A stretch of 64,000 nucleotides of DNA from a bacterium (lineage in GTDB: Bacteria; SAR324; NAC60-12). Under the pieces are notes generated by a model, which did no database searches, had not been told where the DNA came from, and was given only the letters and a program-made list of their open reading frames with translations. Both the position numbers and the translations under genes were made by a program. Below are positions 3,366 through 28,624 of this stretch, piece by piece; position 1 is the stretch's first letter, and every line of letters begins with the position of its first letter. The stretch spans positions 704,001 through 768,000 of the forward strand of contig CBDDTI010000746.1 in the NCBI GenBank assembly GCA_965233585.1, in the 5' to 3' direction.

Positions 3366-4304
3366 ATGAGTAAAAGAGACGAAACGTCCCTAGCTTTAAG
3401 AGCAGTGTGGCTTCACTTAATCGGGGGCTTAACACAGCTAGAAGTTTCTGCACGGCTGGGGATTTCAAAGTTGAAGGCACACCGCTTGATTAGTCATGCC
3501 ATGAGTGCAGGCATTGTCAAAGTTTTTATAGAGGGAGAAGTCGCAGAGTGTGTGCGTTTGGAAAATCAGCTCATGGACAAATACAGTTTGAGTTATTGCA
3601 GTGTGAACCCTTGCATAGACACAGAACCCTTACCGGTCAAAACTTTAGGATATGCTGGGGCAAAGTACCTGAACTCACTTTTGGAAAAACCTGATGAATG
3701 TCTCATCGGTATAGGGCATGGGCGCACCTTAGCCTCTGTCTCAGAATATTTGCCCAAGAAAAAGATTACTCATAAAAAATTTGTATCATTGCTTGGTGGT
3801 TTGAGTAGAAAATTTATTGCAACACCCTACGATGTCATTCATCAGCTGGCAAGTAAAACAGAGGCAGATGCGTTTGTCATGCCCCTGCCTATCGTTGCAA
3901 ATTCCACTGAAGACAAATCGGTTTTGATGTCTCAACGAGGAGTCAGCGAAATTTTTCAAATCATGCAAAAGTCAGATGTGATGCTTGCTGGGATTGGAAG
4001 CACAGCCCCCACCGCTTATCTGATTCAAAGTTCTATTTTTACAGAAACAGAATTTGAAGAGATTCGCTCAGCAGGTGGAGAAGGCGAGTTGCTTGGCAGT
4101 TTTTTTTCAAGTGAAGGACAGATCGTTAGAACTGCCTTGACAGATCGCATCATTTCTCTGGATTTTGAATCCATGAAAAACCAAAGAATTATTGGCATTG
4201 CAGGTGGAGTGAGAAAAGCACATGGCATCAAGGCTGTGTTAAAAAGCTCTATCTTGCAAGGTCTTATCACTGACGAGCAAACTGCCAATCTGCTTGTGAG
4301 TTAA
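3366..4304 (+). CDS. eryD: SorC/DeoR-family sugar-binding transcriptional regulator (EryD-like)
   Basis: N-terminal HTH (LALRAVWLH..GLTQ.EVS.RLGIS..KAHRLI), GIGHGRTL and LITDE motifs; resembles recalled alphaproteobacterial EryD. Confidence 0.85.
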   Translation: MSKRDETSLALRAVWLHLIGGLTQLEVSARLGISKLKAHRLISHAMSAGIVKVFIEGEVAECVRLENQLMDKYSLSYCSVNPCIDTEPLPVKTLGYAGAKYLNSLLEKPDECLIGIGHGRTLASVSEYLPKKKITHKKFVSLLGGLSRKFIATPYDVIHQLASKTEADAFVMPLPIVANSTEDKSVLMSQRGVSEIFQIMQKSDVMLAGIGSTAPTAYLIQSSIFTETEFEEIRSAGGEGELLGSFFSSEGQIVRTALTDRIISLDFESMKNQRIIGIAGGVRKAHGIKAVLKSSILQGLITDEQTANLLVS

Positions 4305-4332: not shown

Positions 4333-5772
4333 ATGAGCCAAAAAGAAGACGATGTCTTTGAAAAATATGTGAAAGGTCAAATGCCCAGAAGGGAGTTTTT
4401 GCACAAAACAGCAAAGTTGGGTCTGACAGCAGGTGCTGCCCATTTGATGATGACACAAGCGGCAACTAGCTTATTTGCAGGGAATTTTGATTGGATGAAG
4501 TTTAAAGGGAAGACCTTAAAGCTTTTACTCAACAAGCACCCCTACACTGATGCAATGATTGCCAATCTCAACACTTTCAAAAAGTTGACAGGCATGGACG
4601 TCAAATATGATGTCTTCCCTGAAGATGTTTATTTTGACAAAGTGACCGCCGCGCTCTCTTCTAGGTCAAAAGAATATGATGCTTTTATGACGGGAGCATA
4701 CCAAACATGGACTTACGGACCAGCAGGCTGGATTGAAGATTTGAGTGAATGGATTGAAGACTCTGACAAAACCGCCCCTGATTATAACTGGAAGGATATG
4801 CTACCCGGGTTGCGTGCCTCTACTGCTTGGAACGGTGTGCCGGGTTCTGAACTTGGAACAGCAGGTTCAAAGCAATGGTGTATCCCTTGGGGCTATGAGC
4901 TGAACAGCATTTCTTACAACCGAAGGCTTCTGGACAAAGCAGGTGTTGAACCCCCCAGAGATTTGGACGATTTAATAGACGTCGCTCAAAAATTAAAAAA
5001 AGATTTAGGAGGTCCTTATGGCATTGGTGTTCGTGGTTCTCGTTCTTGGGCAACCATTCACCCGGGCTTTTTATCAGCTTATGCCAACTATGGACAAAAG
5101 GATTTCACCATTGACAATGGCATGTTGAAAGCGGCAATGAATACGAGAGGCTCAAAAAACTTTCATAGGAAATGGGTCAAAATGATTCAAGATTCTGGTC
5201 CTAAAAACTGGTCAACTTACACTTGGTATCAGGTGGGAACAGACCTAGGAGCAGGTGCTTCTGCCATGATTTATGATGCTGACATTCTAGGATATTTTAT
5301 GAATGGAGAAGACAATAAAGAGTCTGGCAATTTGGGATACATGCCGTTTACTCCCAATCCTAATGCTGAGGCTCCCACCCCTAACGTGTGGATTTGGTCT
5401 CTTGCCATGTCTCGTTTTTCTCGTCAAAAAGATGCCGCTTGGTATTTTATGCAATGGGCATCAGGGCTAGAACATGGGTTATTTGGTGCAAGAAAAATGG
5501 ACTTTGTGAACCCTGTGCGTCAGACAGTTTGGGACGACAGAATGTTCCGAAATCGCATTGCTGATTCTTACCCCGGGTACTTGAAACAGCACGATCAATC
5601 AGCACCAGGGGCTAAAATTCACTTCACTCCACAACCTCTCTTCTTTGACCTCACAACACAATGGGCAGAGACGCTACAAAAAATGGTAGCCAATTCTGTT
5701 TCTGTTGATGAAGGATTGGATCAACTTGCAGAAAGTGTGGACAAACAACTCAAAGATGCTGGTTTGGCATAA
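4333..5772 (+). CDS. CUT1 sugar/polyol ABC transporter substrate-binding protein, Tat-exported
   Basis: RREFL twin-arginine signal; SBP_bac_1-like composition; precedes permeases. Confidence 0.9.
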   Translation: MSQKEDDVFEKYVKGQMPRREFLHKTAKLGLTAGAAHLMMTQAATSLFAGNFDWMKFKGKTLKLLLNKHPYTDAMIANLNTFKKLTGMDVKYDVFPEDVYFDKVTAALSSRSKEYDAFMTGAYQTWTYGPAGWIEDLSEWIEDSDKTAPDYNWKDMLPGLRASTAWNGVPGSELGTAGSKQWCIPWGYELNSISYNRRLLDKAGVEPPRDLDDLIDVAQKLKKDLGGPYGIGVRGSRSWATIHPGFLSAYANYGQKDFTIDNGMLKAAMNTRGSKNFHRKWVKMIQDSGPKNWSTYTWYQVGTDLGAGASAMIYDADILGYFMNGEDNKESGNLGYMPFTPNPNAEAPTPNVWIWSLAMSRFSRQKDAAWYFMQWASGLEHGLFGARKMDFVNPVRQTVWDDRMFRNRIADSYPGYLKQHDQSAPGAKIHFTPQPLFFDLTTQWAETLQKMVANSVSVDEGLDQLAESVDKQLKDAGLA

Positions 5773-15498: not shown

Positions 15499-16392
15499 AT
15501 GTCAAACCCAACTTCATTGAAGAGTAAGTTTCTTTTATCAGACCACCCTTTGCCTTGGCTTTTACCAATGGTGTCAATGTTGTTGGTTTTCACAGTCTAT
15601 CCTTTCTTTTACAACATTTGGTTGAGCTTCCATGAATATTCTGTGTTCAAAAGGCGTTTAGTCTATGTTGGGGGAGAAAACTGGCAAAAGCTGTTGAGCG
15701 ATGAAAGGCTTTGGGAGGCAATGAGCATTACCATGACCTACTTTCTGGTGGTTTTGGTGGTGCAGTTGGTTTTGGGAATGTTGATTGCTTTGCTGCTGGA
15801 TTCTGATGAAAAAACTTTTGGCTTCCTGAGGAGTCTTTTGACGTTGACATTGGTCATTCCCCCTGCAATTACAGGAATGATGTTTTTGTTGATGCAAGAC
15901 CCGGAGTTTGGAATCTTAACCTACCTCTTGGAAACACTTGGTCTTTTAAGCAAAGAAAATCCGATCCTTTCTACTCCCTCTACTGCTTTGATAGGGGTGA
16001 TGATTGCTGACATATGGCAATGGACGCCATTTGTAGTGTTAATTTTCATAGCAGGTCTACGTTCTTTACCAACAGAACCTTATGAAGCGGCAATTTTAGA
16101 TGGGGCTTCTGGAGTTCAAATTTTCTTTCGCATCACATTGCCATTGATGGGACGCGTGATTGCTGTTGTGGTCTTGATTCGGGGAATTGACATTTTTCGT
16201 ATGTTTGACTACGTCTTTGTGATGACGTCAGGAGGTCCAGGGACTTCCACTTATACGCTCAGTCTTTACATTTGGCAGCAAACGTTTAGTTTCATCAAAT
16301 GGGGTTATGGGGCAACCATTAGCCTTGTCTCTCTTCTGGTTGTTCTGTTTGTCTGCAACTTGTTCATTAAAGTGACCAAAGTCAAATGGTAA
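15499..16392 (+). CDS. carbohydrate ABC transporter permease
   Basis: WQWTPF, EAAILDGA. Confidence 0.93.
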   Translation: MSNPTSLKSKFLLSDHPLPWLLPMVSMLLVFTVYPFFYNIWLSFHEYSVFKRRLVYVGGENWQKLLSDERLWEAMSITMTYFLVVLVVQLVLGMLIALLLDSDEKTFGFLRSLLTLTLVIPPAITGMMFLLMQDPEFGILTYLLETLGLLSKENPILSTPSTALIGVMIADIWQWTPFVVLIFIAGLRSLPTEPYEAAILDGASGVQIFFRITLPLMGRVIAVVVLIRGIDIFRMFDYVFVMTSGGPGTSTYTLSLYIWQQTFSFIKWGYGATISLVSLLVVLFVCNLFIKVTKVKW

Positions 16393-16434
16393 AAAATTGA
16401 TCACACAAATCCAACAAATAAAAATAGGCAAAAA

Positions 16435-17304
16435 ATGATTGTTCAATCGTATTCCAAAAGAATGATGAGAGTGGTCTTGGCATGGTTTGTTGTGCTGATT
16501 TCTGCATTTCCAATTTTTTATTGGGTTTCAGTCGCTTTTAAACATGCCAAAGATATTTTTCACATTCCTCCCAAATTGCTAGATTTTGATCCAACTTTGA
16601 AAAACTTTTATGAAGTCTTCGGTTTTTCATTTGGAGGGCAGGTAGATTTTGGAGGGGGTGCAGATTGGTTCATGCTGCCAAGATTGTGGGACTCAATTAT
16701 CATTGCACTAGGTTCTACTGCGTTGGCAGTGGTGGTGTCTGTTCTGGCAGCTTATGCTTTGAGCCGTATGAACTTTACAGGACGTCATCATTTTGTCAAC
16801 TGGGTGCTTTCAACTCGTATGCTTCCACCTGTTGCTGTGGCATTGCCAATGTTTTTGATGTTTCGTGATTTTGGTTTGATGGACACACACATTGGCATCA
16901 TTTTAATTCATGCCTTGATGAATCTGCCGCTTGGTGTGCTGTTGCTGAAAAGTTTTTTTGATGACATTCCCCAAGAAATTGACGAAAGCGCTCTCATAGA
17001 TGGGGCGTCACGGTGGGTAATTTTTCGCCGCGTTGTCTTCCCAATGGCAAAAGGAGGTGTTGCCGCAACTGCTGTGCTGTGCTTCATTTTTTCTTGGACA
17101 GAATTTTTATTTGTTCTCACACTCACCCAGACAGGATTAAAAACTGTTCCTGTTGTCTCTTCTACCTTTGTCACTTCCACAGGCACGGCATGGGGGAATA
17201 TGGCAGCACTTGGAGCAGCCGCCATCATTCCTGCTTTTCTATTCATTTTGATTGTTCAAAAACAGCTAGTCAGAGGTTTAACGTTAGGTTCACTGAAACA
17301 ATAG
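16435..17304 (+). CDS. carbohydrate ABC transporter permease
   Basis: AAYALSR, ESALIDGA, GLTLGSLK end. Confidence 0.93.
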   Translation: MIVQSYSKRMMRVVLAWFVVLISAFPIFYWVSVAFKHAKDIFHIPPKLLDFDPTLKNFYEVFGFSFGGQVDFGGGADWFMLPRLWDSIIIALGSTALAVVVSVLAAYALSRMNFTGRHHFVNWVLSTRMLPPVAVALPMFLMFRDFGLMDTHIGIILIHALMNLPLGVLLLKSFFDDIPQEIDESALIDGASRWVIFRRVVFPMAKGGVAATAVLCFIFSWTEFLFVLTLTQTGLKTVPVVSSTFVTSTGTAWGNMAALGAAAIIPAFLFILIVQKQLVRGLTLGSLKQ

Positions 17305-17537
17305 TCATTTTTTTAAAAAAATGACGTTTCTCATTTCACTAAGTCCGTAAAACTCATGTCATTGAAAAAAGTGACAAATGATGGTAATGTGAAGAAACTG
17401 ACAATAGGTCTAAAAAATTTGATACAAAAAGGCAGTCAAAGCAAATAGACTATCAAAATTGACTAAATCAACAGTTTTCAGAAAGTTGAATTTTTGAAAA
17501 CTATGAGCTTGTCAAACGTTTTGAAACCACCTCAGGC

Positions 17538-19397
17538 ATGCCCCTTTCTTTTAAAGCACTTCAAGCGATTCTTTCCACGAATCCTGATTATCTCAATCAA
17601 GATGGCAGCTTAGACAGCAGTAAACTACACAAGTTGGTTCAAAGCAGTGATGCCTCATTGATTGCTTTGTTATTAAGTCATCAAGAAACCAAAGCTACGT
17701 TCTTCATTCAACAAGGCAATCATAGTGTCTTCCTAAGGGACAAGCTGATTGATTACATATCGCACAAGGATTTTTTAGCCAATTCTTATACGCGTTATAA
17801 AAATAAAATCGGCTTGCATGATGGAACAAACTATCTGAAAAAAACCAATGATGTTGTTCTAAACTTTCCTTTTAAAGATTGCATCTTAGAAGGTGGACAA
17901 ATCAAAGATGATGACAAACAAGGAGAAGTTTATTTGAATGAAGTGTTAGCTTACATAGAAATAGACAGGCTATTTGATAAAAAAGTCTTCACTTCTGCCA
18001 AAAAATACACTTCAAAAGGACAACAAAGCATCGCAACGTTCAACAGAGATGAAAACGGAGTTATCAAAGATAATCTTATCATCAAAGGGAACAATTTAAT
18101 CGCTTTACATAGCATCAAACATCAGTTTAGAGGCAAAGTTAAACTGATTTACATTGACCCACCTTACAACACAGGCAATGACAGCTTTAACTATAATGAC
18201 CATTTTAACCATTCTACTTGGTTAGTTTTTATGAAAAATCGTTTGGAAGTTGCCAAAGAATTGCTAAGAGATGATGGCGTCATTTTTGTCAGCTGTGACC
18301 ACCATGAACAAGCCTATTTAAAAGTTTTGATGGACGAAGTTTTTGGAAGGGAGAATTTTATTGTCAATTTTGTTTGGGAGACTAAAAAGGGAGCGCAAGG
18401 GATTGTGACTAAAAATATGGTTGTTAACAACCATGAAAATTTAATTGTCTTTTCAAAAACAGAAAATGCTTTTTCTTTTAGGGGATTAGAAAGAGAGGAG
18501 GCTGATTTTGCAAATCCTGACCATGACCCAAGGGGAAAATGGAAAAGGCAATACCTTCAAAGGTTTGGACAAAACTTTAGTCAAAAAACTATTGTCAATC
18601 CCCAAAATAAAATGACCTTTACTTTTGAAACACCCTATTCACAAGAAAAATTAGACCAATGGATCACAGAAGGTTACATCATCTTTCCTGACTCACCAGA
18701 CCAATACCCTGCAAGAAAAGAGTTTTTGAAAGATTATAAAAATAAAAAGCAATGTGTGTCTTCATTAGGTTTGTATTCTACAAAAGCAGGTACTGAAGAA
18801 TTGTATAAACTTTTTGACAATCAAAAAGTTTTTAAGAATCCAAAGCCAGAAAAACTTATTTCTTTTATTATTGAGCAATCTACTCTACCCAATGACATTG
18901 TTTTGGATTTTCATTTAGGAAGTGGTACAACTGCTGCTGTGGCTCATAAGATGGGGAGGCAATACATTGGAATTGAGCAGATGGATTACATAGAACAAGT
19001 TGCAGTGGAGCGACTTAGAAAAGTGATTGATGGTGAACAAGGAGCAGTTTCTAAAAGTGTAGAATGGCAAGGAGGAGGTGAGTTTATTTATTTAGAGTTA
19101 AAAAAATACAATCAACATTTTGTAGAGCAAATTCAACAGGCACAAACGACAAAAGAATTGTTAGAGATTAGAAAAGTTCTTTTAGAAAAAGGTTTTATAG
19201 ACTATCGTTTGAATGTTGAGGCAATCAAAGCAAATGACCAAGAATTTAAAAAGATCACATTAGAACAACAAAAACAAATCTTATTTGAGTTTTTAGATAA
19301 AAATCAGTTGTATGTCAATTATTCTGAAAGAAAAGATGAAACGCACAGTTGCACTGACGAAGAAAAAGAACTTTCAAAAAAATTTTATGAGGAGTAA
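17538..19397 (+). CDS. mod: Type III R-M DNA methyltransferase (Mod), copy 1
   Basis: KVKLIYIDPPYNTG (motif IV), variable TRD, VLDFHLGSGTT (motif I), upstream of res. Confidence 0.93.
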   Translation: MPLSFKALQAILSTNPDYLNQDGSLDSSKLHKLVQSSDASLIALLLSHQETKATFFIQQGNHSVFLRDKLIDYISHKDFLANSYTRYKNKIGLHDGTNYLKKTNDVVLNFPFKDCILEGGQIKDDDKQGEVYLNEVLAYIEIDRLFDKKVFTSAKKYTSKGQQSIATFNRDENGVIKDNLIIKGNNLIALHSIKHQFRGKVKLIYIDPPYNTGNDSFNYNDHFNHSTWLVFMKNRLEVAKELLRDDGVIFVSCDHHEQAYLKVLMDEVFGRENFIVNFVWETKKGAQGIVTKNMVVNNHENLIVFSKTENAFSFRGLEREEADFANPDHDPRGKWKRQYLQRFGQNFSQKTIVNPQNKMTFTFETPYSQEKLDQWITEGYIIFPDSPDQYPARKEFLKDYKNKKQCVSSLGLYSTKAGTEELYKLFDNQKVFKNPKPEKLISFIIEQSTLPNDIVLDFHLGSGTTAAVAHKMGRQYIGIEQMDYIEQVAVERLRKVIDGEQGAVSKSVEWQGGGEFIYLELKKYNQHFVEQIQQAQTTKELLEIRKVLLEKGFIDYRLNVEAIKANDQEFKKITLEQQKQILFEFLDKNQLYVNYSERKDETHSCTDEEKELSKKFYEE

Positions 19398-19400
19398 AAA

Positions 19401-19837
19401 ATGATTATTTATCTTGATAATTGTTGTTTTAACAGACCTTTTGATGATCAAAGGTATTTATCTATTAAAATAGAAACTGAATGTAAATTGTTTATACAAC
19501 AAGCCATTAAAGAAGGAAAATTGATTTTATGTTGGTCATACATTCTTGATTTTGAAAATCATCAAAACCCTTTTTTAGAAAGAAAAATACAAATCCAAGA
19601 ATGGAAAAATATAGCTCTTAAAGACACTGAAGAAACAACAGAAATTTTAAAAATAGTGAAGACTTTCACTGCACTTGGATTCAAACCTTTAGATGCTTTA
19701 CATTTAGCTTGTGCCGTAGAAATGAAATCAGATTATTTTATCACGGTTGATAAAGGTATTTTAAAAGTATCTGAAAAATATTATCTCTTAAAATTATATC
19801 TCCTGTTGATTTTGTAAAATTATTAGAAAAAACATGA
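19401..19837 (+). CDS. PIN-domain (VapC-like) toxin; C-terminus appears frameshifted near 19774-19778
   Basis: IYLDNCCFNRPFDDQ, DALHLACA, FITVD PIN motifs; ORF as read ends at 19817, shifted frame ends at 19837. Confidence 0.85.
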
Positions 19838-20046
19838 TGACTGATACCGAATTGAAAATCCATGCTTTTGAAGTGTTGAATCAACATCTTGGTCTTGTAG
19901 AAATGGAAAGGTTTATTGCTTTGATTCAGCAAGAACAGTTTGATTATACGCATTGGAGAACAACTTTATTCCAAGGGCTTGATGGTCAAACAATTAGCCA
20001 ATTAGCAATGGATTATAAGAAAAATCAAAATACACAAATTGAATAA
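19834..20046 (+). CDS. small protein, putative antitoxin partner of the PIN toxin
   Basis: 70 aa, LGLVEMERFI..I....FDYT.WR pattern recalled from small genes adjoining this PIN type; start overlaps the corrected PIN stop. Confidence 0.65.
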   Translation: MMTDTELKIHAFEVLNQHLGLVEMERFIALIQQEQFDYTHWRTTLFQGLDGQTISQLAMDYKKNQNTQIE

Positions 20047-20108
20047 TTTTTTATTCCTATTTAGCTCTATCCGTATTTTCAACAAACAAGTTTTAAAACT
20101 ATTGCAAC

Positions 20109-22016
20109 ATGTCTCTTTCTTTTAAAGAATTAAAAACTATTCTTTCTCAAAATTCGGAATATCTCAATCAAGATGGCAGTTTGAACATTATCAAACTGCA
20201 CAAACTGGCTCAACAATGCGATACCAATTTGATCGCTTTATTGGTGAAGCATCAAAACACTAGATCCAGCTTTTTCATGCAACATGAAGGTTATCATGTT
20301 TTTATGAGAGATAAATTTATAGATTATATTTCACATAAAGAGTTTTTAGCCAATTCTTACACCAGATATAAGAATAAAATCGGCTTGCATGATGGAACAA
20401 ACTATCTGAAAAAAACCAATGATGTTGTTCTAAACTTTCCGTTTAAAGATTGCATCTTAGAAGGTGGACAAACCAAAGATGATGACAAACGGGGAGAAGT
20501 TTACTTGAATGAAGTACTGGCAGGGTTTGAAATAGACAGGCTTCTTGATAAAAAAGTTTTAACTAATTTCAAACGCTTTGGAAGCAATCCCCCTTTATCT
20601 CCCTTTGAAAAGGGGGAAGCAATGGAATTGCAGGGGGATTTCCAACGAGATGAAAACGGAGTTATCAAAGATAATCTCATCATCAAAGGGAACAATCTAA
20701 TCGCTTTACATAGCATCAAACATCAGTTTAGAGGCAAAGTTAAACTGATTTACATTGACCCGCCTTACAACACAGGCAATGACAGCTTTAACTATAATGA
20801 CCACTTTAACCATTCTACTTGGTTAGTTTTTATGAAAAATCGTTTGGAAGTTGCCAAAGAATTGCTAAGAGATGATGGCGTCATTTTTGTACAATGTGAT
20901 GATAACGAACAAGCCTATTTAAAAGTTTTAATGGATGAAGTTTTTGGAAGAGAGAATTTTGTTGCCAATTTTATATGGAATCATAGAAAATCTAGCCAGA
21001 ATGACATTGATGTTTCTCTTTCACATAACTATACATTTACATTTTCTAAAAATAGAGATTTTTTTAAATTAAACTCTTTAAAAATTGATCATAGTAAATT
21101 TTCTAACATAGACAATGATCCTAGAGGAGATTGGATAGCTGACCCTTTTGATGCACCAAACATTCGTCCTAATTTGACATATAAAATAGTCAACCCGAAT
21201 ACAGGTCAAGAGTTTCTACCTCCACAGGGAAGATGCTGGAGAATGACAGAAGAAAAATTTGAAGAAGCTCTAAAAGATAATCGTATTGTTTTTGGTAAGG
21301 CTGGAAAATCCAAACCGCAATTAAAAAGATTGAAATTTGAGGCAGAATTAAAAGGGACAAATCCCTTTACAATATGGGATGGAAATGAAGTAGGGACTTC
21401 CACTGAAGGAACAAAAGAGATTATAAAACTCATGGGAAGGAAAGGAGTCTTTGCCACTCCAAAGCCAGAAAGACTTTTGGAAAGAATTATAAAACTAGCA
21501 ACTCAACCAAATGACATTGTTTTAGATTTTCATTTAGGAAGTGGAACGACGGCAGCCGTTGCTCATAAGATGGGGAGGCAATACATTGGAATTGAGCAAA
21601 TGGATTACATAGAACAAATTGCAGTAGAACGCTTAAAAAAAGTGATTGATGGTGAACAAGGAGGAGTTTCTGAAAGTGTAGAATGGCGAGGAGGAGGTGA
21701 GTTTATTTATTTAGAGTTAAAGAAATACAATCAACATTTTGTAGAACAAATTCAACAGGCACAAACGACAAAAGAATTGTTAGAGATTAGAAAAGTTCTT
21801 TTAGAAAAAGGTTTTATAGATTATCGTTTGAATGTTGAGGCAATCAAAGCAAATGACCAAGAATTTAAAAAGCTAACATTAGAACAACAAAAACAAATCT
21901 TATTTGAGTTTTTAGATAAAAATCAGTTGTATGTCAATTATTCTGAAAGAAAAGATGAAACGCACAGTTGTACTGACGAAGAAAAAGAACTTTCAAAAAA
22001 ATTTTATGAGGAGTAA
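20109..22016 (+). CDS. mod: Type III R-M DNA methyltransferase (Mod), copy 2, different TRD
   Basis: DPPY and FHLGSG motifs; N- and C-terminal blocks near-identical to copy 1, central TRD different. Confidence 0.93.
   Translation: MSLSFKELKTILSQNSEYLNQDGSLNIIKLHKLAQQCDTNLIALLVKHQNTRSSFFMQHEGYHVFMRDKFIDYISHKEFLANSYTRYKNKIGLHDGTNYLKKTNDVVLNFPFKDCILEGGQTKDDDKRGEVYLNEVLAGFEIDRLLDKKVLTNFKRFGSNPPLSPFEKGEAMELQGDFQRDENGVIKDNLIIKGNNLIALHSIKHQFRGKVKLIYIDPPYNTGNDSFNYNDHFNHSTWLVFMKNRLEVAKELLRDDGVIFVQCDDNEQAYLKVLMDEVFGRENFVANFIWNHRKSSQNDIDVSLSHNYTFTFSKNRDFFKLNSLKIDHSKFSNIDNDPRGDWIADPFDAPNIRPNLTYKIVNPNTGQEFLPPQGRCWRMTEEKFEEALKDNRIVFGKAGKSKPQLKRLKFEAELKGTNPFTIWDGNEVGTSTEGTKEIIKLMGRKGVFATPKPERLLERIIKLATQPNDIVLDFHLGSGTTAAVAHKMGRQYIGIEQMDYIEQIAVERLKKVIDGEQGGVSESVEWRGGGEFIYLELKKYNQHFVEQIQQAQTTKELLEIRKVLLEKGFIDYRLNVEAIKANDQEFKKLTLEQQKQILFEFLDKNQLYVNYSERKDETHSCTDEEKELSKKFYEE
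20586..20640. repeat. palindromic element inserted in frame in mod2
   Basis: AATCCCCCT...AGGGGGATT terminal inverted repeat enclosing two small hairpins; absent from mod1. Confidence 0.75.
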
Positions 22017-22019
22017 AAA

Positions 22020-22241
22020 ATGAGACAAATTGTAATTTACCCAGACATTTGTAATGGTAAGCCTGTTATTGAAGGAACACGAATCACCGTCCAAACGATT
22101 TTAGAATTTTTAGGAGCAGGAGATTCAGTAGAAGAAGTATTAGAGGCTTATCCTAGTTTAACTAGGGAAGACATCTATGTTTGTATTCAATATGCTTCAA
22201 AAATCATGGCAAATTGTTATCAAAATAAAATAACGATATGA
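22020..22241 (+). CDS. DUF433-family putative antitoxin
   Basis: PDICNGKPVIEGTRITV..ILE.L..G.S.EE.L..YPSLTREDI. Confidence 0.9.
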   Translation: MRQIVIYPDICNGKPVIEGTRITVQTILEFLGAGDSVEEVLEAYPSLTREDIYVCIQYASKIMANCYQNKITI

Positions 22242-22579
22242 AAGGCTTTCTTTTTGATGAAAACCTTCCTATCAATTTAGATTTAGAATCACCTTTTTCC
22301 ATCATTCATGCTTCTCATTTAGGAGAAAGCCTATCAGATACTCAAATATGGGAATATGCAAAACAAAATGATTTAGTGATTGTTACAAAAGATACAGATT
22401 TTTCATATAGAATTTTGGAAATTTCACCACCACCAAGAGTCATTCATTTACGTATTGGAAATTTAAAAAGAAAAGAGTTTAATACTTTGCTTTGTCAAAT
22501 TTGGAGACAATTAGAAAATTTATGCTCTTGTCATAAATTAATCAATGTCTATATTAACCAAATTGACACCCTTGCCTAA
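22238..22579 (+). CDS. DUF5615 (VapC45-like) PIN-like toxin
   Basis: FLFDENLP, SDTQIWEYA, IVTKDTDF, HLRIGN; coupled to the DUF433 gene. Confidence 0.88.
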   Translation: MKGFLFDENLPINLDLESPFSIIHASHLGESLSDTQIWEYAKQNDLVIVTKDTDFSYRILEISPPPRVIHLRIGNLKRKEFNTLLCQIWRQLENLCSCHKLINVYINQIDTLA

Positions 22580-22649
22580 TCAAAAAATTTAAAATAACTC
22601 TCTCTTTTGAAAAATTGATGATTCTTTTATTTATAATGAAATTCCTCAT

Positions 22650-22703
22650 TGCACTGATGAAGAAAAAGAACTTTCAGAAAACTTTTATGAGGAATAAAAA
22701 ATG
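22650..22703 (+). repeat. third, stand-alone copy of the 54-bp mod 3' end/RBS unit
   Basis: TGCACTGATGAAGAAAAAGAACTTTCAGAAAACTTTTATGAGGAATAAAAAATG; 50/54 identical to 19350-19403; also matches 21969-22022. Confidence 0.9.
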
Positions 22704-23123
22704 ATAGAAACAACTTATTTAAAGCATTGTCTTTTGGTTTTGGAAGCGGCATACATCAAGCTAAAAAATTGTAACCCTCAAGAAATAGAATATGACATCT
22801 ATCGTTTAGCAGTAGTCAAAGAGTTTGAAATTGTTTTAGAGCAAGCAGGGAAGTTATTAAAAAAATGTATGAAACCATACTTTCACAGTCCTAAAGCAGT
22901 CAATCAACTGACTTTCAAAGATATTTTTAGAGAAGCAGGAAAGTTTGGCATACTAGAAATTGACGAACTACAACGTTGGCTAGATTACAGAGATAGTCGC
23001 AATGAAACTTCGCATGAATACGGAGAAAGTTTAGCCAATCAAACATTAGAATTAATAGAACAATTTCTTATAGATTCAAAAAATTTGGTGGATAAACTAG
23101 AACGGTTTAACAAACATCATTGA
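22701..23123 (+). CDS. HEPN / nucleotidyltransferase substrate-binding (HI0074-like) toxin
   Basis: VKEFEIVLEQ, KDIFREA, RNETSHEY (RX4H HEPN motif). Confidence 0.88.
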   Translation: MIETTYLKHCLLVLEAAYIKLKNCNPQEIEYDIYRLAVVKEFEIVLEQAGKLLKKCMKPYFHSPKAVNQLTFKDIFREAGKFGILEIDELQRWLDYRDSRNETSHEYGESLANQTLELIEQFLIDSKNLVDKLERFNKHH

Positions 23124-23434
23124 ACATGCTTATCATTAGAGAACAAGACAAACAGGCAATCGTTCAAATTGCAAAAAAAGTCTTACAAACAAAGCTAGAG
23201 ATTTGGGCTTTTGGTAGTCGTGTCAATGGAAATTGTCATAGCACAAGTGATTTGGATTTAGTCTTAAAAACAACAGATCAAACACCATTGCCAATGAACG
23301 AACTTAATCAATTTAAAGAAGCATTAAGGGATTCTAACATTCCAATTATTGTACAAGTGTTAGATTGGAATAGAATCCCAAAATCTTTTTGCCAAAATAT
23401 TATGAAAAAATATGAAGTATTGACCCAAATTTAA
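23120..23434 (+). CDS. minimal nucleotidyltransferase (MNT) antitoxin
   Basis: WAFGSRVNG...SDLDL motif; overlaps the HEPN stop. Confidence 0.9.
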   Translation: MNMLIIREQDKQAIVQIAKKVLQTKLEIWAFGSRVNGNCHSTSDLDLVLKTTDQTPLPMNELNQFKEALRDSNIPIIVQVLDWNRIPKSFCQNIMKKYEVLTQI

Positions 23435-23451
23435 CAAAAGACCAAGCACCA

Positions 23452-26004
23452 ATGAACAAACAATTTTTATTTGAGAAGTATCAAGCATTAGAAGACATGG
23501 GTTGTTTGCAAACAGAAGTACCTGACTTAATCACTAAAAATCTTAAACATACGTTAAGACCTTATCAAGAAAAAGCAATCAAACGTTTTGTACATTATCA
23601 CGAAAATTATCCCAATAAAAATGGTAATCAACATTTGCTTTTTGAGATGGCAACAGGTACAGGCAAGACTTTAATGATGGCGGCTTTGATGCTCTATTTA
23701 TACTCAAAGAATCACCGAAATTTTATCTTCTTTGTCAATTCTACAAACGTTTTAGAAAAGACCAAACAGAACTTTATTGCACAAGGAACAAGCAAATATC
23801 TTTTTACAGATTCTATTGAAATCACAGGAGACAAAGTAGAAATTAAAGCCATTGATTCAATAGAAGACTCTAATCCTCATTGCATTAATATTTTATTTAC
23901 CACCATACAAGGCTTACATTCACAACTCAATACACCCAAAGAAAATGGTTTAACTTTGTCAGATTTTACAGAATACCAAGTCGTTTTGCTCGCAGATGAA
24001 GCACATCACAACAACACACAAACTAAAGTACAAAAAGAGTTATTTGATTCTTGGGAAAACAGTGTTTTAGCAATTTTTCAACAACATTCAGATAATCATT
24101 TATTAGAATTTACAGCCACTGCAGAATTAGACAAGCCTGCATTAAAAGATAAATACTTAGAGAAAGCAATCATTCAATATGGTCTAAGAGAGTTTAGAAG
24201 TGATGGATATTCTAAAAATATTTTCTTAGCACAAACTCAAACAGATGAGATAAAAAATCGCTTTTTGTTAGCATTGATAGTGAGTCAATACCGTATGGAA
24301 GTTGCCGCAAAATATAAAATCCCTTTAAAACCTGTCATTCTCTTTAAATCTAAAACAATTAAAGAAAGCAGAGACAATCAAAAATCTTTTGAAGAGATGA
24401 TAGAACATTTGACAAAAGAAGAAATCCATGAACTTTTTGATTTAATAGGCAGATATAGAAATCAAACCCCAATCTATCACAAAATTTATTATTTTTTTAG
24501 AGAAGATGAGTTTTTTGCTCAACATCTTGTAGAACGACTAAAAATTGAATTTTTACCAGAAAAAATCATCAATGCCAATGATGACCAAGACGTCAAAACG
24601 ATGCAAATTAAACTCAATACACTGGAGGACGTCAACAACCGATATAGAGTGATTTTTGCAGTGGATAAGCTCAATGAAGGTTGGGACGTCTTGAATTTGT
24701 ATGACATTGTCAAATTGTATGAAACACCTAGCACTAAATATCACCCACCAACTACCAAAGAAATCCAGTTGATTGGCAGAGGAGCAAGGCTTTATCCCTA
24801 CAAAAGAGATGACAACCAAGATTTATACAAACGAAAATGTGATGACGATTTAGACCATGAATCTATCGTTTTGGAACAACTTCATTTCCATACTTCTGAT
24901 GGCTCAAAATTCATTGAACAATTAGATAAAGATTTAGCAGAAATAGGCTTAAAAGATTCTGACTTAACTGAGGTAGAAATCAAATTGAAAGATGATTTTA
25001 CAAAATCAAACATTTATAAATATGGTGTCATTTACCTCAACCAAAGAAAGCTCAGAGAATCTAGTCATATGACTTTAAACAAAAACTTATTTGGCAATTA
25101 TGTTTTAGATGATGTTTTTAAAAAAGAATTTGAATCCGTAACAGGACACTATCAAATCAAAGTGGATCTTGATGAGTATGAATTAGGAGAAGAACAACAT
25201 TCAAAAAATCATTTATATACCCAAAAAAAGACTTTGAAAATTCAAGATATTCCTAAACAGATTTTCTTAAAAGCATGTTCCAGAAATAAATATTTTTTCT
25301 TTGATAACCTAGAATATAAACTTGGCTTAAATTGTATCACTGATTTACAAAAAATCTTTCAAGACAATCTTCTCACCATTGAACACCCAAAAACACACTC
25401 CGAAGCAGAAGTACAAAAACCTGAACACTTACTTAAAGTCTGTGATAGTTTTTTAGCAAATCTGTCTCATCAAATGACTAAAATCTGCACAAACTATGAG
25501 GGAACAAAAGAGCTTATTCCCAAGCCGATTCAAGATGTTTTTAGGAATAAAAGAATTATTTTAACTAAAGAACAAGAAAGAAATTTGTTAGACGGCTTTC
25601 AATTTCAATATCTTGCACAAGAAAAGTTAAAAATTAATTCTTATGAACAGCAGTTAATTGCTGACATTTGTGATTTTTTTCAAGGGAAGGGGTTAGAACC
25701 TGTTTGGTTGATGAGGAATGAACGTTTTTTTCAGATTTATAATTTTTCTAATGGAGAAGGCTTTGAACCCGATTTTTTATTGATGCTTCATCAAAAAGAT
25801 GAAAATGAAAATCATCTTTGTTACCAAATTTTTGTTGAACCCAAAGGGGAACATTTACAACAATTTGACCAGTGGAAAGAAGATTTAATGCACAATTTTG
25901 AGAAAATTGAACTCAAGGACACTCAACAAAAAATCATTGCTTTGCCTTTCTATACTCCAGACTCACAGCAATCTTTTTTGAGTGACTTAAACAAAAAATT
26001 GTGA
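23452..26004 (+). CDS. res: Type III R-M restriction subunit (Res; helicase plus PD-(D/E)XK nuclease)
   Basis: EMATGTGKT, LADEAHH, FTAT, LNEGWDV, QLIGRGAR, FEPDF...VEPK. Confidence 0.92.
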   Translation: MNKQFLFEKYQALEDMGCLQTEVPDLITKNLKHTLRPYQEKAIKRFVHYHENYPNKNGNQHLLFEMATGTGKTLMMAALMLYLYSKNHRNFIFFVNSTNVLEKTKQNFIAQGTSKYLFTDSIEITGDKVEIKAIDSIEDSNPHCINILFTTIQGLHSQLNTPKENGLTLSDFTEYQVVLLADEAHHNNTQTKVQKELFDSWENSVLAIFQQHSDNHLLEFTATAELDKPALKDKYLEKAIIQYGLREFRSDGYSKNIFLAQTQTDEIKNRFLLALIVSQYRMEVAAKYKIPLKPVILFKSKTIKESRDNQKSFEEMIEHLTKEEIHELFDLIGRYRNQTPIYHKIYYFFREDEFFAQHLVERLKIEFLPEKIINANDDQDVKTMQIKLNTLEDVNNRYRVIFAVDKLNEGWDVLNLYDIVKLYETPSTKYHPPTTKEIQLIGRGARLYPYKRDDNQDLYKRKCDDDLDHESIVLEQLHFHTSDGSKFIEQLDKDLAEIGLKDSDLTEVEIKLKDDFTKSNIYKYGVIYLNQRKLRESSHMTLNKNLFGNYVLDDVFKKEFESVTGHYQIKVDLDEYELGEEQHSKNHLYTQKKTLKIQDIPKQIFLKACSRNKYFFFDNLEYKLGLNCITDLQKIFQDNLLTIEHPKTHSEAEVQKPEHLLKVCDSFLANLSHQMTKICTNYEGTKELIPKPIQDVFRNKRIILTKEQERNLLDGFQFQYLAQEKLKINSYEQQLIADICDFFQGKGLEPVWLMRNERFFQIYNFSNGEGFEPDFLLMLHQKDENENHLCYQIFVEPKGEHLQQFDQWKEDLMHNFEKIELKDTQQKIIALPFYTPDSQQSFLSDLNKKL

Positions 26005-26042
26005 GACGATTGCGTTGTCTTAAACTGATGAAAAGGATACCT

Positions 26043-26666
26043 ATGCCAACATCTACCGCACCAGAACATTCTTTTTTGCATGATGTGTATGCCTTGTTGA
26101 TTGGTAGCAGCTTGATTGCAGTTGGGTTGGCTATGTTCAAATCTGCTGGGATTGTGACATCAGGTTTGAGCGGCTGGGCATTTTTGTTGTCTGAAGTCAC
26201 AGGATATTCGTTTGGCGTCTTGTTGTTTATTATCAGTTTACCATTTTATATTTTCGCTTATCGTTTGTTGGGTTTTTGGTTTACATTACGGACAGTTGTT
26301 TTGGTGACGGTGGTTTCTGTTTCTGTGGACATGATAGGTGTGATGATGACAATCAACGTGCATCATTCCTTGATGGGCAGTCTCACTGGTGGTGTTCTTT
26401 GTGGCATGGGGTTACTGTCAATCATGCGTCATGGCATGAGTATGGGAGGATTTGGCGTGCTAGGCGCCTTTTTACAACATAAAAACATCATACGTGCAGG
26501 TATTGTGATGATGAGTGCTGATGGAATTTTGGTGGTGTTATCCGCATTTGTCTTTCCATGGGAAAGCATTTTGTTTTCTTTGGCATCTATGGTCAGCGTG
26601 AATCTCATACTTATCGTCAATCATAAATCTGAATGGTATGTCTCCACTAGCTACGGCATGGGATAA
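26043..26666 (+). CDS. YitT-family membrane protein
   Basis: hydrophobic; HS..HDVYALLIG, GIVTSG.SG, GG.LCG.GLL..RHG.SMGG; start moved to the ATG at 26043. Confidence 0.8.
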   Translation: MPTSTAPEHSFLHDVYALLIGSSLIAVGLAMFKSAGIVTSGLSGWAFLLSEVTGYSFGVLLFIISLPFYIFAYRLLGFWFTLRTVVLVTVVSVSVDMIGVMMTINVHHSLMGSLTGGVLCGMGLLSIMRHGMSMGGFGVLGAFLQHKNIIRAGIVMMSADGILVVLSAFVFPWESILFSLASMVSVNLILIVNHKSEWYVSTSYGMG

Positions 26667-26749
26667 ACCGCATTAATCTTTACAAAAAATTTGAATAGGC
26701 TTGGTAAAAGTCAAAAGAAAACTTATCGTTTTTGTCGTGAAACATTTGT

Positions 26750-26935
26750 AAAAACATCAAAAGATAAAATGTTTATAACATTTTATGAATATGCTTAAAA
26801 AAGACATCGTCATCGGTCTTGATAGTTTCACGCAATCCACAAAAGCGATTGCATGGACTTGTGAAGGAGAAAATGTGAAGGGCGTGCAGATATTCCCATG
26901 CAAACACCCCAAGCAGGTTGTGTTAAGCAAACTAT
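26750..26935 (+). pseudogene. frameshifted 5' fragment duplicating the upstream region and first ~52 codons of the FGGY kinase at 32812
   Basis: KKDIVIGLDSFTQSTKAIAWTCEGEN vs KKDIVIGLDSSTQSTKAIAWTREGEN; after a 4-nt deletion continues IPMQTPQAGCVKQ vs IPMQTPQAGYVEQ. Confidence 0.9.
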
Positions 26936-27000
26936 CTTCAAAATATATCTTCTTGCTAATGGGTGTTTATGACTTTGTCTTGTTTGAAGTCCTACATTCT

Positions 27001-27190
27001 ATGAAAAATGTCTTGACTTCAAATAAATCAGAAATGTAGAATGCCAACGGTCTTTAGTAATGGTGTTGAATTTTGAACAATTCAGTCCACAAATTGTCTG
27101 AGATTCGCTTTTGTTTTTTAACCTCGTTCGTGAGTTGCCTATGAACTATTTTTGAAACTGAATTTGTTGATACAACTCTTGTGAGTCAAG
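27001..27190 (+). promoter_or_regulatory. promoter/leader copy A (TTGACT-18-TAGAAT, then hairpin plus U-tract)
   Basis: homologous to 37931-38121; lies upstream of a binding-protein gene. Confidence 0.7.
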
Positions 27191-27307
27191 ATGGCTTTGT
27201 TTCTATCATCTAGTAATAGGTATATTTGAAATTTTGTGTGAACTGTTCGCCTTTCAAAGTCTTGGCTTCTTTTTATTTAACTTAAACTCCCAATTCAAAA
27301 AATAATT

Positions 27308-28624
27308 ATGAAAAAATATCTTAAAAAATGTTTAGCTTCTGCTGGATTTTTGGTGTTATCAAACATCGCTTTGGCTGATTTACCCTATCAACTCAAGGAA
27401 GGCAAGCCTTATGACGGTGCAACCGTTAAGGTGATGGTGGTTGTCACTCCTCAATTCAAAGGAATTGAACTTCGTGATGAAGAATTTACTGCTCTGACAG
27501 GTATCAATGTAGAATGGACAGAAGTCCCTTTTACTTCTTTACAAGAAAAAGTAGCAAGTGTAGGTGTGGCAGGCAATGGAAACTTTGATGTAGTGAACTA
27601 TTTGGACAGCTGGGGTCCTTCTTATGCACATTGGTTAGTGCCGATTGACGATTGGCTCAAACGCGATGGAATTTCTATGGAACGTTATCCTGCCGCTTTT
27701 GCTAAAAGTGCATCTTATCAAGGAAAAACTTTGGGCTTTCCTTTGAGGGCACATCCACAACTCATGTTTTACAGAAAAGACATTTTTCAGGAGCTAGGCT
27801 TACCTGTTCCTCAAACTTGGGACGATGTGGTGCGTGCAGGAAAAAAGATCAAAGCTGAAAAAAATATGGGTGGGTTAGCCTGTTATTATGGGGCTGATGG
27901 CAATAAGCAAAACCTTTTCATCTGGTTGAACTTCCTATGGGCTAATGATGTTGATGTCTTTACAGACGATATGAAACCTGCATGGGATTCACCAAAAGCG
28001 ATTCAAGCTACTAAGGATTATGTGGCTTTAAACACTGAACATGACATTTGTGGGTCAGGAGCCATTTCTAATGTAGAACAAGATGCAAGGTTGCAGTTTC
28101 AACAAGGTAAAGCTGCGATGATTCCAGTCTGGTGGTGGGCATATGCTCCAATGACTGACCCCAAAGCCTCTGTTTTGAAAAAATCACAGATTGGGTTTGT
28201 TGGAATGCCATCATATCAAGGGAAAGTCGTGACTTACGCAATCTCAATGCCCTTTGCAATTTCTAAATACTCCAAAAATAAAGAGGCTTCTTGGGAATTT
28301 ATGAAGTGGTTATCTAATCCTGCAATGGACAAAAGAAATGCCATTGAACGAGAGGTGGACGGAAAACGAATTGTCAATAATGTTGTGACACACAAAACCA
28401 GTTTAGTTGATGAAGAAGTCAATGCTGCGAATGATAATATTCAAAAAGCTGCTGCTGAAAGTCTGGTAGATTCTAACATCATGCCCCAAATCCCAGAATG
28501 GCCTGAAGTTGGGGATCTGGTGGCTAATGCCATTCAAAAAGCGGCAAATGGTGGTGATGTTGAACAACTGATGAAAGATTCTGCCAAAAAAGCTAAAAGA
28601 ATTTTGCGCAGAGCAGGTTATTAA
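27308..28624 (+). CDS. CUT1 sugar ABC transporter substrate-binding protein
   Basis: Sec signal; MFYRKDIF, PQTWDDV, WEFMKWL. Confidence 0.92.
   Translation: MKKYLKKCLASAGFLVLSNIALADLPYQLKEGKPYDGATVKVMVVVTPQFKGIELRDEEFTALTGINVEWTEVPFTSLQEKVASVGVAGNGNFDVVNYLDSWGPSYAHWLVPIDDWLKRDGISMERYPAAFAKSASYQGKTLGFPLRAHPQLMFYRKDIFQELGLPVPQTWDDVVRAGKKIKAEKNMGGLACYYGADGNKQNLFIWLNFLWANDVDVFTDDMKPAWDSPKAIQATKDYVALNTEHDICGSGAISNVEQDARLQFQQGKAAMIPVWWWAYAPMTDPKASVLKKSQIGFVGMPSYQGKVVTYAISMPFAISKYSKNKEASWEFMKWLSNPAMDKRNAIEREVDGKRIVNNVVTHKTSLVDEEVNAANDNIQKAAAESLVDSNIMPQIPEWPEVGDLVANAIQKAANGGDVEQLMKDSAKKAKRILRRAGY

Follow-up and report, generated by a model that had tools for sequence, protein, structure and literature searches.

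How does a restriction-modification (R-M) locus of Type III come to carry two complete modification genes and the end of a third in front of a single restriction gene, with a different toxin-antitoxin (TA)-type gene pair behind every mod end? This question is raised by a locus at positions 17538-26004 of the window, by which the entire analyzed stretch of 64,000 nt is meant (a bacterium of the SAR324 lineage; GenBank assembly GCA_965233585.1, contig CBDDTI010000746.1, positions 704,001 to 768,000 of the forward strand). An earlier note, made from the sequence alone, had regarded the mod-res junction as a fixed capture site at which TA cassettes accumulate, using the mod tail as homology arm and ribosome-binding site. 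The reading offered here, which is probable rather than certain when all of its parts are taken jointly, is that of an acquired Type III island with two mod genes and a mod stump before one res gene and with three embedded TA-type modules, which were stacked by recombination and would act as a second layer of defense and/or as stabilizers of the island. The main value of the analysis is seen in the family-wide pattern at the mod-res junction, more than in the single locus.

Organization of the locus

All elements of the locus lie on the + strand, in the order mod1, a PIN-like gene, its 70-aa partner, mod2, a DUF433 gene, a DUF5615 gene, an orphan mod 3' end, a HEPN gene, a minimal nucleotidyltransferase (MNT) gene, and res, which is the order already proposed in the earlier note and borne out by the open reading frames (ORFs) and by Pfam, NCBIfam, and PADLOC. 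Each mod stop codon is separated by 3 nt from the next ATG, with a different gene pair behind each mod end, and the position occupied by each of the modules is the one at which res starts in simple loci. All six TA-type genes between mod1 and res are encoded on the same strand as the two R-M genes enclosing them, which is the nested arrangement looked for in 'guilt-by-embedding' approaches.

The two mod genes (mod1, 17538-19397, 619 aa; mod2, 20109-22016, 635 aa) encode alleles of a Type III DNA methyltransferase, as indicated by their matches to the Pfam families N6_N4_Mtase (PF01555; 1.9e-48 and 1.2e-50, respectively) and TypeIII_RM_meth (PF12564; 5.5e-16 and 2.5e-17) and to the PADLOC model MTase_III (1.3e-188 and 1.3e-184). 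The product of res (23452-26004, 850 aa) is the single Type III restriction subunit, with matches to ResIII (PF04851; 1.2e-30) and, across residues 21-849, to REase_III of PADLOC (7.3e-119). Both Mod and Res of a Type III system are thereby represented, with res lying downstream in the same orientation and without a full mod directly beside it. Systems of this type are further defined by an ATP-dependent cleavage that requires unmethylated sites in inverse orientation and by hemimethylation.

The repeated mod tail

A 54-bp unit had been described at three sites, with its final ATG starting an unrelated gene pair each time, and this description stands. Comparison of the copies (19350-19403, 21969-22022, and 22650-22703) gives 53/54, 50/54, and 49/54 matching positions, a degenerate 45-nt pattern hits exactly these three sites in the 64-kb window as against none in 100 shuffles, and every copy reads ...GAG GA(G/A) TAA AAA ATG, with the ATG being the start of the next gene. 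The length of the unit has to be corrected, since the homology of the orphan copy extends back to about 22636 and the shared unit therefore measures about 68 nt instead of 54. Defined in this way, copy 1 (19336-19403, found by the pattern match and as repeat family D4) consists of the mod1 3' end, the stop codon, and the ATG of the PIN-like gene, copy 2 (21955-22022, from the pattern match and alignment) consists of the mod2 3' end, the stop codon, and the ATG of the DUF433 gene, and the orphan copy (22636-22703) runs into the ATG of the HEPN gene. The two intact tails are identical at 67/68 positions, and the orphan agrees with them at 58/68 and 57/68.

Read in frame, the orphan tail yields ..CTDEEKELSENFYEE* and is preceded by stop codons. 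A tblastn comparison identifies its 20 residues as the C-terminus of a Mod protein, with 70% identity to residues 616-635 of Mod2, and the tail motif of this C-terminus is common to all 120 Mod relatives listed. Because the orphan reads as a Mod C-terminus with the family motif, and no further mod or res remnant is found in the window, it should be regarded as the stump of a third mod allele with greater divergence; its identity of 83% to the mod2 tail across 75 nt indicates that it is a copy of neither intact tail.

An array of this appearance might also arise if an assembler joined strain variants with different mod alleles and cargo in tandem via their common mod segments, and repeats of about 300 nt with 91-94% identity can indeed mislead assemblers; in addition, the assembly may derive from a metagenome bin. 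Such an artifact is very improbable here. The orphan tail follows unique sequence and the DUF5615 gene, not a mod body, and shows 10-11 differences to each intact tail over 68 positions, and therefore does not represent a collapsed or duplicated read path. Furthermore, the joins leading from the partner gene to mod2 and from the DUF5615 gene to the orphan tail lie in unique DNA, the contig extends over 830,719 bp, and similar arrays and orphan tails are encountered in independent assemblies.

The proposal that the mod tail also provides a ribosome-binding site appears weak, since the host rarely uses Shine-Dalgarno sites: a Shine-Dalgarno-like 4-mer is present upstream of 10 of the 47 other ORF starts of the window (ORFs of at least 150 aa, with the three tail-coupled genes excluded), and the GAGGAG of the tail represents Glu-Glu codons of Mod. 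It may be added that the leaders of the genes in the window are A-rich and that the host seems to be little reliant on Shine-Dalgarno pairing. The orphan tail contains a perfect 9-nt inverted repeat (22641-22649 / 22687-22695; ATTCCTCAT / ATGAGGAAT), which pairs with the GAGGA before the HEPN start. Its RNA fold reaches -11.9 kcal/mol (z -2.18, with 4/200 shuffles folding as well), and values of -3.8 and -3.4 kcal/mol (z +1.3 and +1.4) are obtained for the intact tails, which form no anti-GAGGA hairpin. The hairpin of the orphan tail may damp the translation of HEPN at this site, where no ribosome comes from a mod.

The mod-res junction in related loci

Related loci were collected by searching species-representative genomes once with an alignment of Mod proteins, which returned at least 79 loci (designated by L-numbers) among the matches listed; the counts given below rest on these loci, which include neither the window's own genome nor its nearest Mod relatives. 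In 63 of the 79 loci, a full mod has res behind it in the same orientation. The distance from the mod stop to the res start is between -20 and +47 nt in 35 of these 63, while a gap of 288-3462 nt with extra same-strand ORFs separates the two genes in 28. The view that Type III mod and res genes are usually adjacent was thus overstated, holding for the 35 loci and failing for the 28. In the plasmid relatives from Streptococcus salivarius and Thioclava, mod and res are adjacent.

The 28 gaps contain 39 ORFs of at least 60 aa on the + strand, 20 with a Pfam family and 19 without. Among the cargo are RhuM (4 loci, one of them with Fic), Bro-N (2), PDDEXK_3 (2), DUF1883-TIR together with transposases, Shedu SduA_C, HTH-M78 with DUF4411, a Clp protease with DUF6602, DUF365, and PIN_3 with ASCH. 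Defense or candidate models of PADLOC are matched by 16 of the 39 gap ORFs, distributed over 14 of the 28 loci, with 23 ORFs remaining without a match; the matches are mostly to 'PDC' candidates, which come from the guilt-by-embedding approach. The coupling to mod is tight, with the first gap ORF starting between -25 and +15 nt from the mod stop in 17/28 loci.

On a tree of the N-terminal halves of Res (FastTree, 61 rows; L004, L038, and L068 were omitted because of short Res matches), the state of the junction, embedded or adjacent, changes at least 17 times, with 12 of these changes being forced by well-supported branches. Shuffling of the states gives a mean of 20.1 changes, and 39/500 shuffles are as low as 17. 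Sister loci are unlike in state in the pairs L045/L060, L031/L035, L048/L046, and L022/L074, and unlike in cargo in the pair L051/L056. The mod-stop/res-start slot is general, fast-turning-over, and operon-preserving in this Mod/Res family, beyond the source genome. A fixed gene order without cassette turnover, which the earlier note had named as speaking against its own view, was not found among the 63 loci.

Comparison of sister loci shows how closely the insertions keep to the two gene ends. The mod stop of L035 overlaps the res start within the 8 nt ATGGCTGA (2715-2730), and the homology between L031 and L035 continues to 3 nt beyond the mod stop and returns 2 nt ahead of the ATG of res. 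These 8 nt, present as a single copy in L035, flank the embedded RhuM gene of L031 on both sides (3815-3830 and 4865-4880), and RhuM therefore begins with the first codons of res itself. Between L045 and L060 the homology breaks 6 nt after the mod stop, and it resumes 2-5 nt before res in the pairs L063/L055 and L056/L051. The modules of the window follow this pattern, each of them occupying the start position next to a mod stop.

A stricter proposal is that the mod-stop/res-start junction and the conserved mod 3' end together form a sequence-defined docking site, at which defense cassettes, singly or as units of a mod allele and an effector, are exchanged between lineages and can be stacked as arrays without a dedicated recombinase, and that the docked RNase-type effectors are guardians, the translation of which keeps pace with that of Mod and which are set free once phage anti-restriction disables the complex. 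We consider this proposal unlikely to hold in full. The idea of a capture site at the junction is partly supported, in that foreign genes recurrently occupy this position: cargo is diverse in 28/63 loci, at least 17 changes are needed on the tree, the breakpoints of homology are close to the mod stop and the res start, and extra mod tails and tandem mod genes are found in 4 and 3 of the listed loci, respectively.

Extra mod tails are present in four of the 79 loci (L002, L032, L054, and L056), and the exact tail pattern of the window occurs in none of the 79. In L056, mod is followed by a 421-aa ORF and an orphan mod tail abutting res, 77% identical to the mod tail of the sister locus over 73 nt. 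L032 contains two mod-tail pieces about 400 nt apart (15850-17415), which lie directly upstream of an ORF of the phage integrase family; the intact mod precedes them by 4 kb, and res is located upstream of mod in this locus. In L002 (6367-11953), two tandem mod genes are preceded, at a distance of 1.5 kb, by a further copy of the last 33 nt of a mod tail together with the start of the next gene; this tail is followed by two overlapping ORFs of 85 and 104 aa without a family and then by an AbiJ_NTD4/DUF7014 gene, and no res is present within 10 kb. Finally, L054 (11100-11250) has three tandem copies, with a period of 58 nt, of the last approximately 24 nt of mod plus downstream sequence, located before a PDDEXK_3 gene.

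Mosaic structure of the mod genes

Mod1 and Mod2 are 68% identical and differ in their central target-recognition region. At the nucleotide level, the identity changes abruptly along the genes: in a codon-by-codon comparison, the identity is 61-77% over the first 225 nt, where synonymous differences are numerous, two inner blocks reach 87-99%, the central part of about 570 nt falls to 43-64%, and the last approximately 270 nt are 97-100% identical with synonymous sites included, leaving 0-1 synonymous differences per 25 codons. As judged from these alignments, mod1 and mod2 are mosaics and not fresh duplicates, indicating that alleles of different source stand side by side and that their 3' ends have recently been recombined or homogenized. 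A similarity of about 25 nt precedes the ATGs of both mod genes, and nothing similar to these leaders is found ahead of the orphan tail. Mod2 also carries an insertion of 10 codons relative to mod1 at 20559-20633 (region of GSNPPLSPFEKGEAMELQG, containing short runs, C5 and G5), a further variable patch in addition to the main recognition region.

Tandem mod genes are also found in three of the listed loci (L015, L002, and L018). On a Poribacteria chromosome, res is followed by five intact tandem mod genes without cargo between them (L015, 962-14182). The mosaic of conserved ends and variable middle parts recurs in L015 and L002 and is less clear in L018. In addition, five Mod paralogues with near-identical C-terminal tails (P0166, P0181, P0183, P0192, and P0202) are encoded on one contig of 2,033,073 bp, which probably represents another multi-mod genome.

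These features raise the possibility that the locus serves as a reservoir of specificities, in which the direct repeats (the 5', middle, and 3' segments of mod and the orphan tail) drive frequent deletion, duplication, and gene conversion, so that cells differ in their mod allele or chimera and in their cargo, with the TA pairs being bystanders or imposing a penalty on loss. The variation would then be recombinational and not based on the phase variation of repeat tracts. The directly repeated mod segments with 88-99% identity, the homogenized mod 3' ends, and the tandem arrays with the same mosaic in L015 and L002 are in line with this possibility, as are the co-located mod alleles with conserved ends in Mycoplasma bovis PG45 (PMC5909438). 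However, there is no simple-sequence repeat tract in either mod and no recombinase gene in the island, deletions between direct repeats are irreversible, and a single assembly is silent on variation within the population. A reservoir function in this sense therefore seems doubtful to us. The regulation of a phasevarion via a repeat tract was considered as well and is rejected, since neither mod contains such a tract: Tandem Repeats Finder returned 9 rows for 17000-26500, with at most 2.9 copies and no tract of 1-5 nt.

With respect to the coexistence of two mod genes and one res gene, Type III complexes of the composition Mod2Res1 have been described (PMC8259958), and we infer that one Res serves both Mods.

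The three TA-type modules

The first module consists of a PIN-like (VapC-type) gene (19401-19817, 138 aa as read) and a 70-aa partner (19834-20046). With 21.2 bits (4.6e-4), the PIN-like protein stays under the Pfam PIN cut-off of 23.6. Nevertheless, it shows an Atlas similarity of 0.97 to PIN/VapC clusters and counts 3089 homologues at E<=1e-5, including some with the name PIN or VapC, and its residues D6, D98, and D117 fall into invariant columns of a 40-sequence alignment. The structural model (pLDDT 86.6) retrieves VapC toxins as top Foldseek matches, with TM values of 0.54-0.63 across many of them and VapC21 (5SV2; E 1.9e-4) as the best match in the PDB; no match was obtained when PDB sequences were searched with a profile built from the PIN-like family. 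Despite the sub-cut-off Pfam score, the protein may thus be classified as a predicted PIN-domain toxin with its acidic active-site residues.

Part of the gene seems to be out of frame. The homologues P0392-P0424, which were inspected, have a length of 143-152 aa and terminate in ..DKGILKK....I.I.(N/S)P(I/V).F.., while frame 0 of the window at 19760-19836 ends in ..KYYLLKLYLLLIL; the family ending, ..IISPVDFVKLLEKT, is obtained in the +2 frame, with its TGA overlapping the ATG of the partner. As sequenced, the reading frame is thus shifted over the last approximately 20 codons in comparison with all homologues inspected, through either a genuine defect or an erroneous base call in a run rich in A. 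The earlier assignment of a PIN gene is supported by the Atlas clusters, the homologues, and the VapC fold, with the reservation of this shifted 3' end. The 70-aa partner belongs to a conserved family without a name, as it falls into no Pfam, NCBIfam, or PADLOC family and has 346 relatives among cluster representatives at E<=1e-3. A PIN-like piece precedes the partner domain in 5 of 150 listed representatives, and the order of PIN and partner therefore recurs elsewhere. The model of the partner is a four-helix structure (pLDDT 88) for which a fold search of the PDB yielded no match at E<=0.001 and no known antitoxin fold, and the protein is regarded here as the putative antitoxin of the PIN-like protein.

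The second module comprises a DUF433 (COG2442) protein of the antitoxin type (22020-22241, 73 aa) and a DUF5615 (PIN-like) protein of the toxin type (22238-22579, 113 aa). Both match their Pfam families above the cut-off (PF04255, 3.5e-26; PF18480, 6.9e-22), and DUF5615 additionally matches PIN_10 (5.9e-4) and, in a profile search, shows a weak match to PDB sequences. The start of the DUF5615 gene and the stop of the DUF433 gene share 4 nt. Among pairs of a COG2442 and a PIN protein, function as a VapBC system has been shown only for VapBC10 of Synechocystis (PMC3834315).

The third module starts after a spacer of 121 nt between the DUF5615 stop and the HEPN start and consists of a toxin-type HEPN protein of the HI0074 / NTase substrate-binding family (22701-23123, 140 aa) and an antitoxin-type MNT (23120-23434, 104 aa), the gene of which overlaps the HEPN stop. 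HEPN is recognized by the Pfam families NTase_sub_bind (5.4e-20) and HepT-like (2.7e-4) and by NCBIfam HI0074 (65.4 bits vs. a cut-off of 55.8), and it matches HI0074 (1JOG; 3.8e-14) and the 'HEPN toxin' 8XDJ (3.3e-5) in the PDB. Its Rx4-6H motif is intact (RNETSH at residue 100). MNT matches Pfam Polbeta (8.9e-11) and NTP_transf_2 (1.3e-5) and PADLOC PDC-S09 (4e-7), and it retains the GS..DLD motif (GSRVNGNCHSTSDLD at residue 32), so that the motif pairing of Type VII HepT/MntA-like systems is present. The MntA equivalog NF047752 is not reached (35 bits vs. a cut-off of 60), and MNT is therefore not filed as MntA proper. All three modules are regarded as TA-type pairs, with the toxic and neutralizing roles being predicted. 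TA systems usually have the antitoxin gene first, unlike two of the three modules in the window, which are toxin-first.

The modules might be selfish hitch-hikers, namely ordinary addiction-type TA pairs that have settled in a tolerant and strongly expressed junction without a mechanistic link to restriction, and that stabilize the island or themselves. This explanation would fit with PIN, DUF433-PIN, and HEPN-MNT being classic mobile TA families, with the lack of recurrence of any of these modules in the 79 listed loci, with the foreign GC content of the island, and with one toxin gene, the PIN-like one, already looking decayed. It is at odds with the cargo at the junction of the relatives, which is mostly of the defense type and not random (14/28 loci match PADLOC, including Shedu, TIR, and RhuM candidates), and with the tight same-strand coupling to mod being the rule there. 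On balance, a pure hitch-hiker origin appears rather unlikely.

Genomic context

The entire locus coincides with a low-GC island (17538-26004), the GC content of 0.318 contrasting with 0.418 in the left and 0.398 in the right flank. As judged from its base composition, the locus is a horizontally acquired, foreign-looking island. No tRNA was found in the window, no border repeats of at least 10 nt at the island ends, and no recombinase among the island ORFs; an Rfam scan of 17000-27000 returned two sub-threshold matches at chance level. The island is flanked by ABC permease genes (15499-17304) on the left and by genes for YitT and a solute-binding protein (26001-28624) on the right. It may split a transporter cluster consisting of the two ABC permease genes and the YitT plus solute-binding-protein genes, and the res stop shares 4 nt with the longest YitT ORF.

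Origin and possible function of the array

According to the reading of an acquired and stacked Type III island, units consisting of a mod allele plus cargo and derived from different sources would have been stacked through recombination in the conserved mod ends, either by unequal crossover or by homology-anchored illegitimate joining as candidate routes. The res-proximal mod would later have lost its body, with the last approximately 68 nt left before HEPN/MNT. One or a few transcripts of the + strand would cover the locus, Mod1 and Mod2 would each pair with the single Res, resulting in two specificities, and the embedded RNase-type modules would represent a second, abortive-type layer and/or stabilizers of the island, in analogy to PrrC or DarTG2 in Type I systems. 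A role of the toxins of the window as PrrC-like guardians is proposed by this analogy.

Several observations weigh against this reading. None of the 79 listed loci contains homologues of the six TA-type proteins, and the TA flavor is therefore unique to the window locus within the sample. The relatives are also distant, with Mod at most 62% identical (the neighboring Mod excepted) and Res at most 56% (55-56% for the nearest). A second mod tail is found between cargo and res in 1/28 embedded loci (L056), and recombination from tail to tail is therefore not a common route of cargo acquisition; the function of the mod tail as a homology arm, as proposed in the earlier note, is thus backed by the extra tails in the window and in four listed loci and by the 97-100% identity of the last approximately 270 nt of mod, and weakened by the rarity of second tails. 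The exact breakpoints could reflect selection against operon-breaking insertions and not a targeted mechanism. Within the window, the frameshift at the 3' end of the PIN-like gene implies that one toxin out of three may be non-functional, unless the base call is wrong. Finally, scans for promoters (31 vs. 39 expected) and terminators (7 vs. 4.8) were not above shuffles, and the operon structure of the locus is therefore putative.

Comparison with known systems

Several parts of this picture are already in print, namely TA or abortive-infection genes embedded in R-M operons, the guardian idea, and side-by-side mod alleles with swapped recognition regions. The earlier claim that the architecture is undescribed has to be narrowed correspondingly, since embedding in Type I R-M, BREX, DISARM, and Hma systems and co-located mod alleles have been published, while no description was found in the open-access literature of genes located between Type III mod and res or of this junction as a cargo slot, nor of TA modules within a mod array or a different TA-type pair behind each mod end, the stump included. 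If the Type III mod-res junction is a general slot, as suggested by the 28/63 listed loci, it would provide a further hunting ground for as yet unknown defense genes beside Type I, BREX, DISARM, and Hma systems. The stacked array itself represents a compact natural test case for whether one Res serves several Mod specificities, whether RNase toxins are wired to restriction in the manner of PrrC or act only as stabilizers of the island, and how operon-preserving insertions arise.

Among the known TA systems, VapBC (including VapBC10) and HepT/MntA resemble the modules of the window in their domain families, their small and overlapping two-gene layout, and their conserved catalytic motifs. The 70-aa partner departs from the named VapBC antitoxins in belonging to no named family and in lacking a PDB fold match, and the MNT of the window departs from MntA in scoring under the equivalog cut-off. 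The array also recalls the cassette arrays of integrons, in which unrelated small units likewise stand behind a repeated sequence each and are read in one direction. Unlike in integrons, the repeated element is the 3' end of a coding sequence, and two of the units include a mod gene of 1.9 kb. An integron mechanism is rejected, as the island contains no integrase and shows no attC-like or conserved inverted repeats at the unit ends.

The adjacent mod genes M1/M2/M3.Mbo45ORF167P of M. bovis PG45 have been explained by duplication and the acquisition of new recognition regions (PMC5909438). Like these genes and the modA allele families, the mod genes of the window stand side by side and combine conserved 5' and 3' ends with unrelated recognition regions. 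The M. bovis genes, however, carry GA[n] tracts and are discussed as phase-variable regulators, whereas those of the window have no such tract, are separated by TA-type modules, and are accompanied by an apparently intact res.

The closest parallel is provided by the TA and abortive-infection genes (PrrC, DarTG2, HEPN, and RhuM) that are embedded in Type I R-M, BREX, DISARM, and Hma systems and have given rise to the term 'guilt-by-embedding', with the embedding site of the Type I kind being called a 'potential recombination hotspot' (PMC3710099; PMC12707154; PMC12255303; PMC12409362; 10.1101/2024.01.29.577857). Examples given in this literature are PrrC in EcoprrI, DarTG2 between hsdS and hsdR, and TgvAB in Vibrio VPI-2. 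The window and its relatives share with Type I embedding the nesting of same-strand genes between restriction subunit genes and the turnover of diverse cargo, for which HEPN RNase-type toxins and RhuM/Fic are typical, and the cargo of the relatives matches PADLOC candidate models from the guilt-by-embedding approach (Payne et al., 2024 preprint). The locus of the window is distinguished from the Type I cases by its Type III host system, with the slot located at the mod-stop/res-start junction, and by the stacking of three modules, each located behind a separate mod 3' end, with a stump among these ends.

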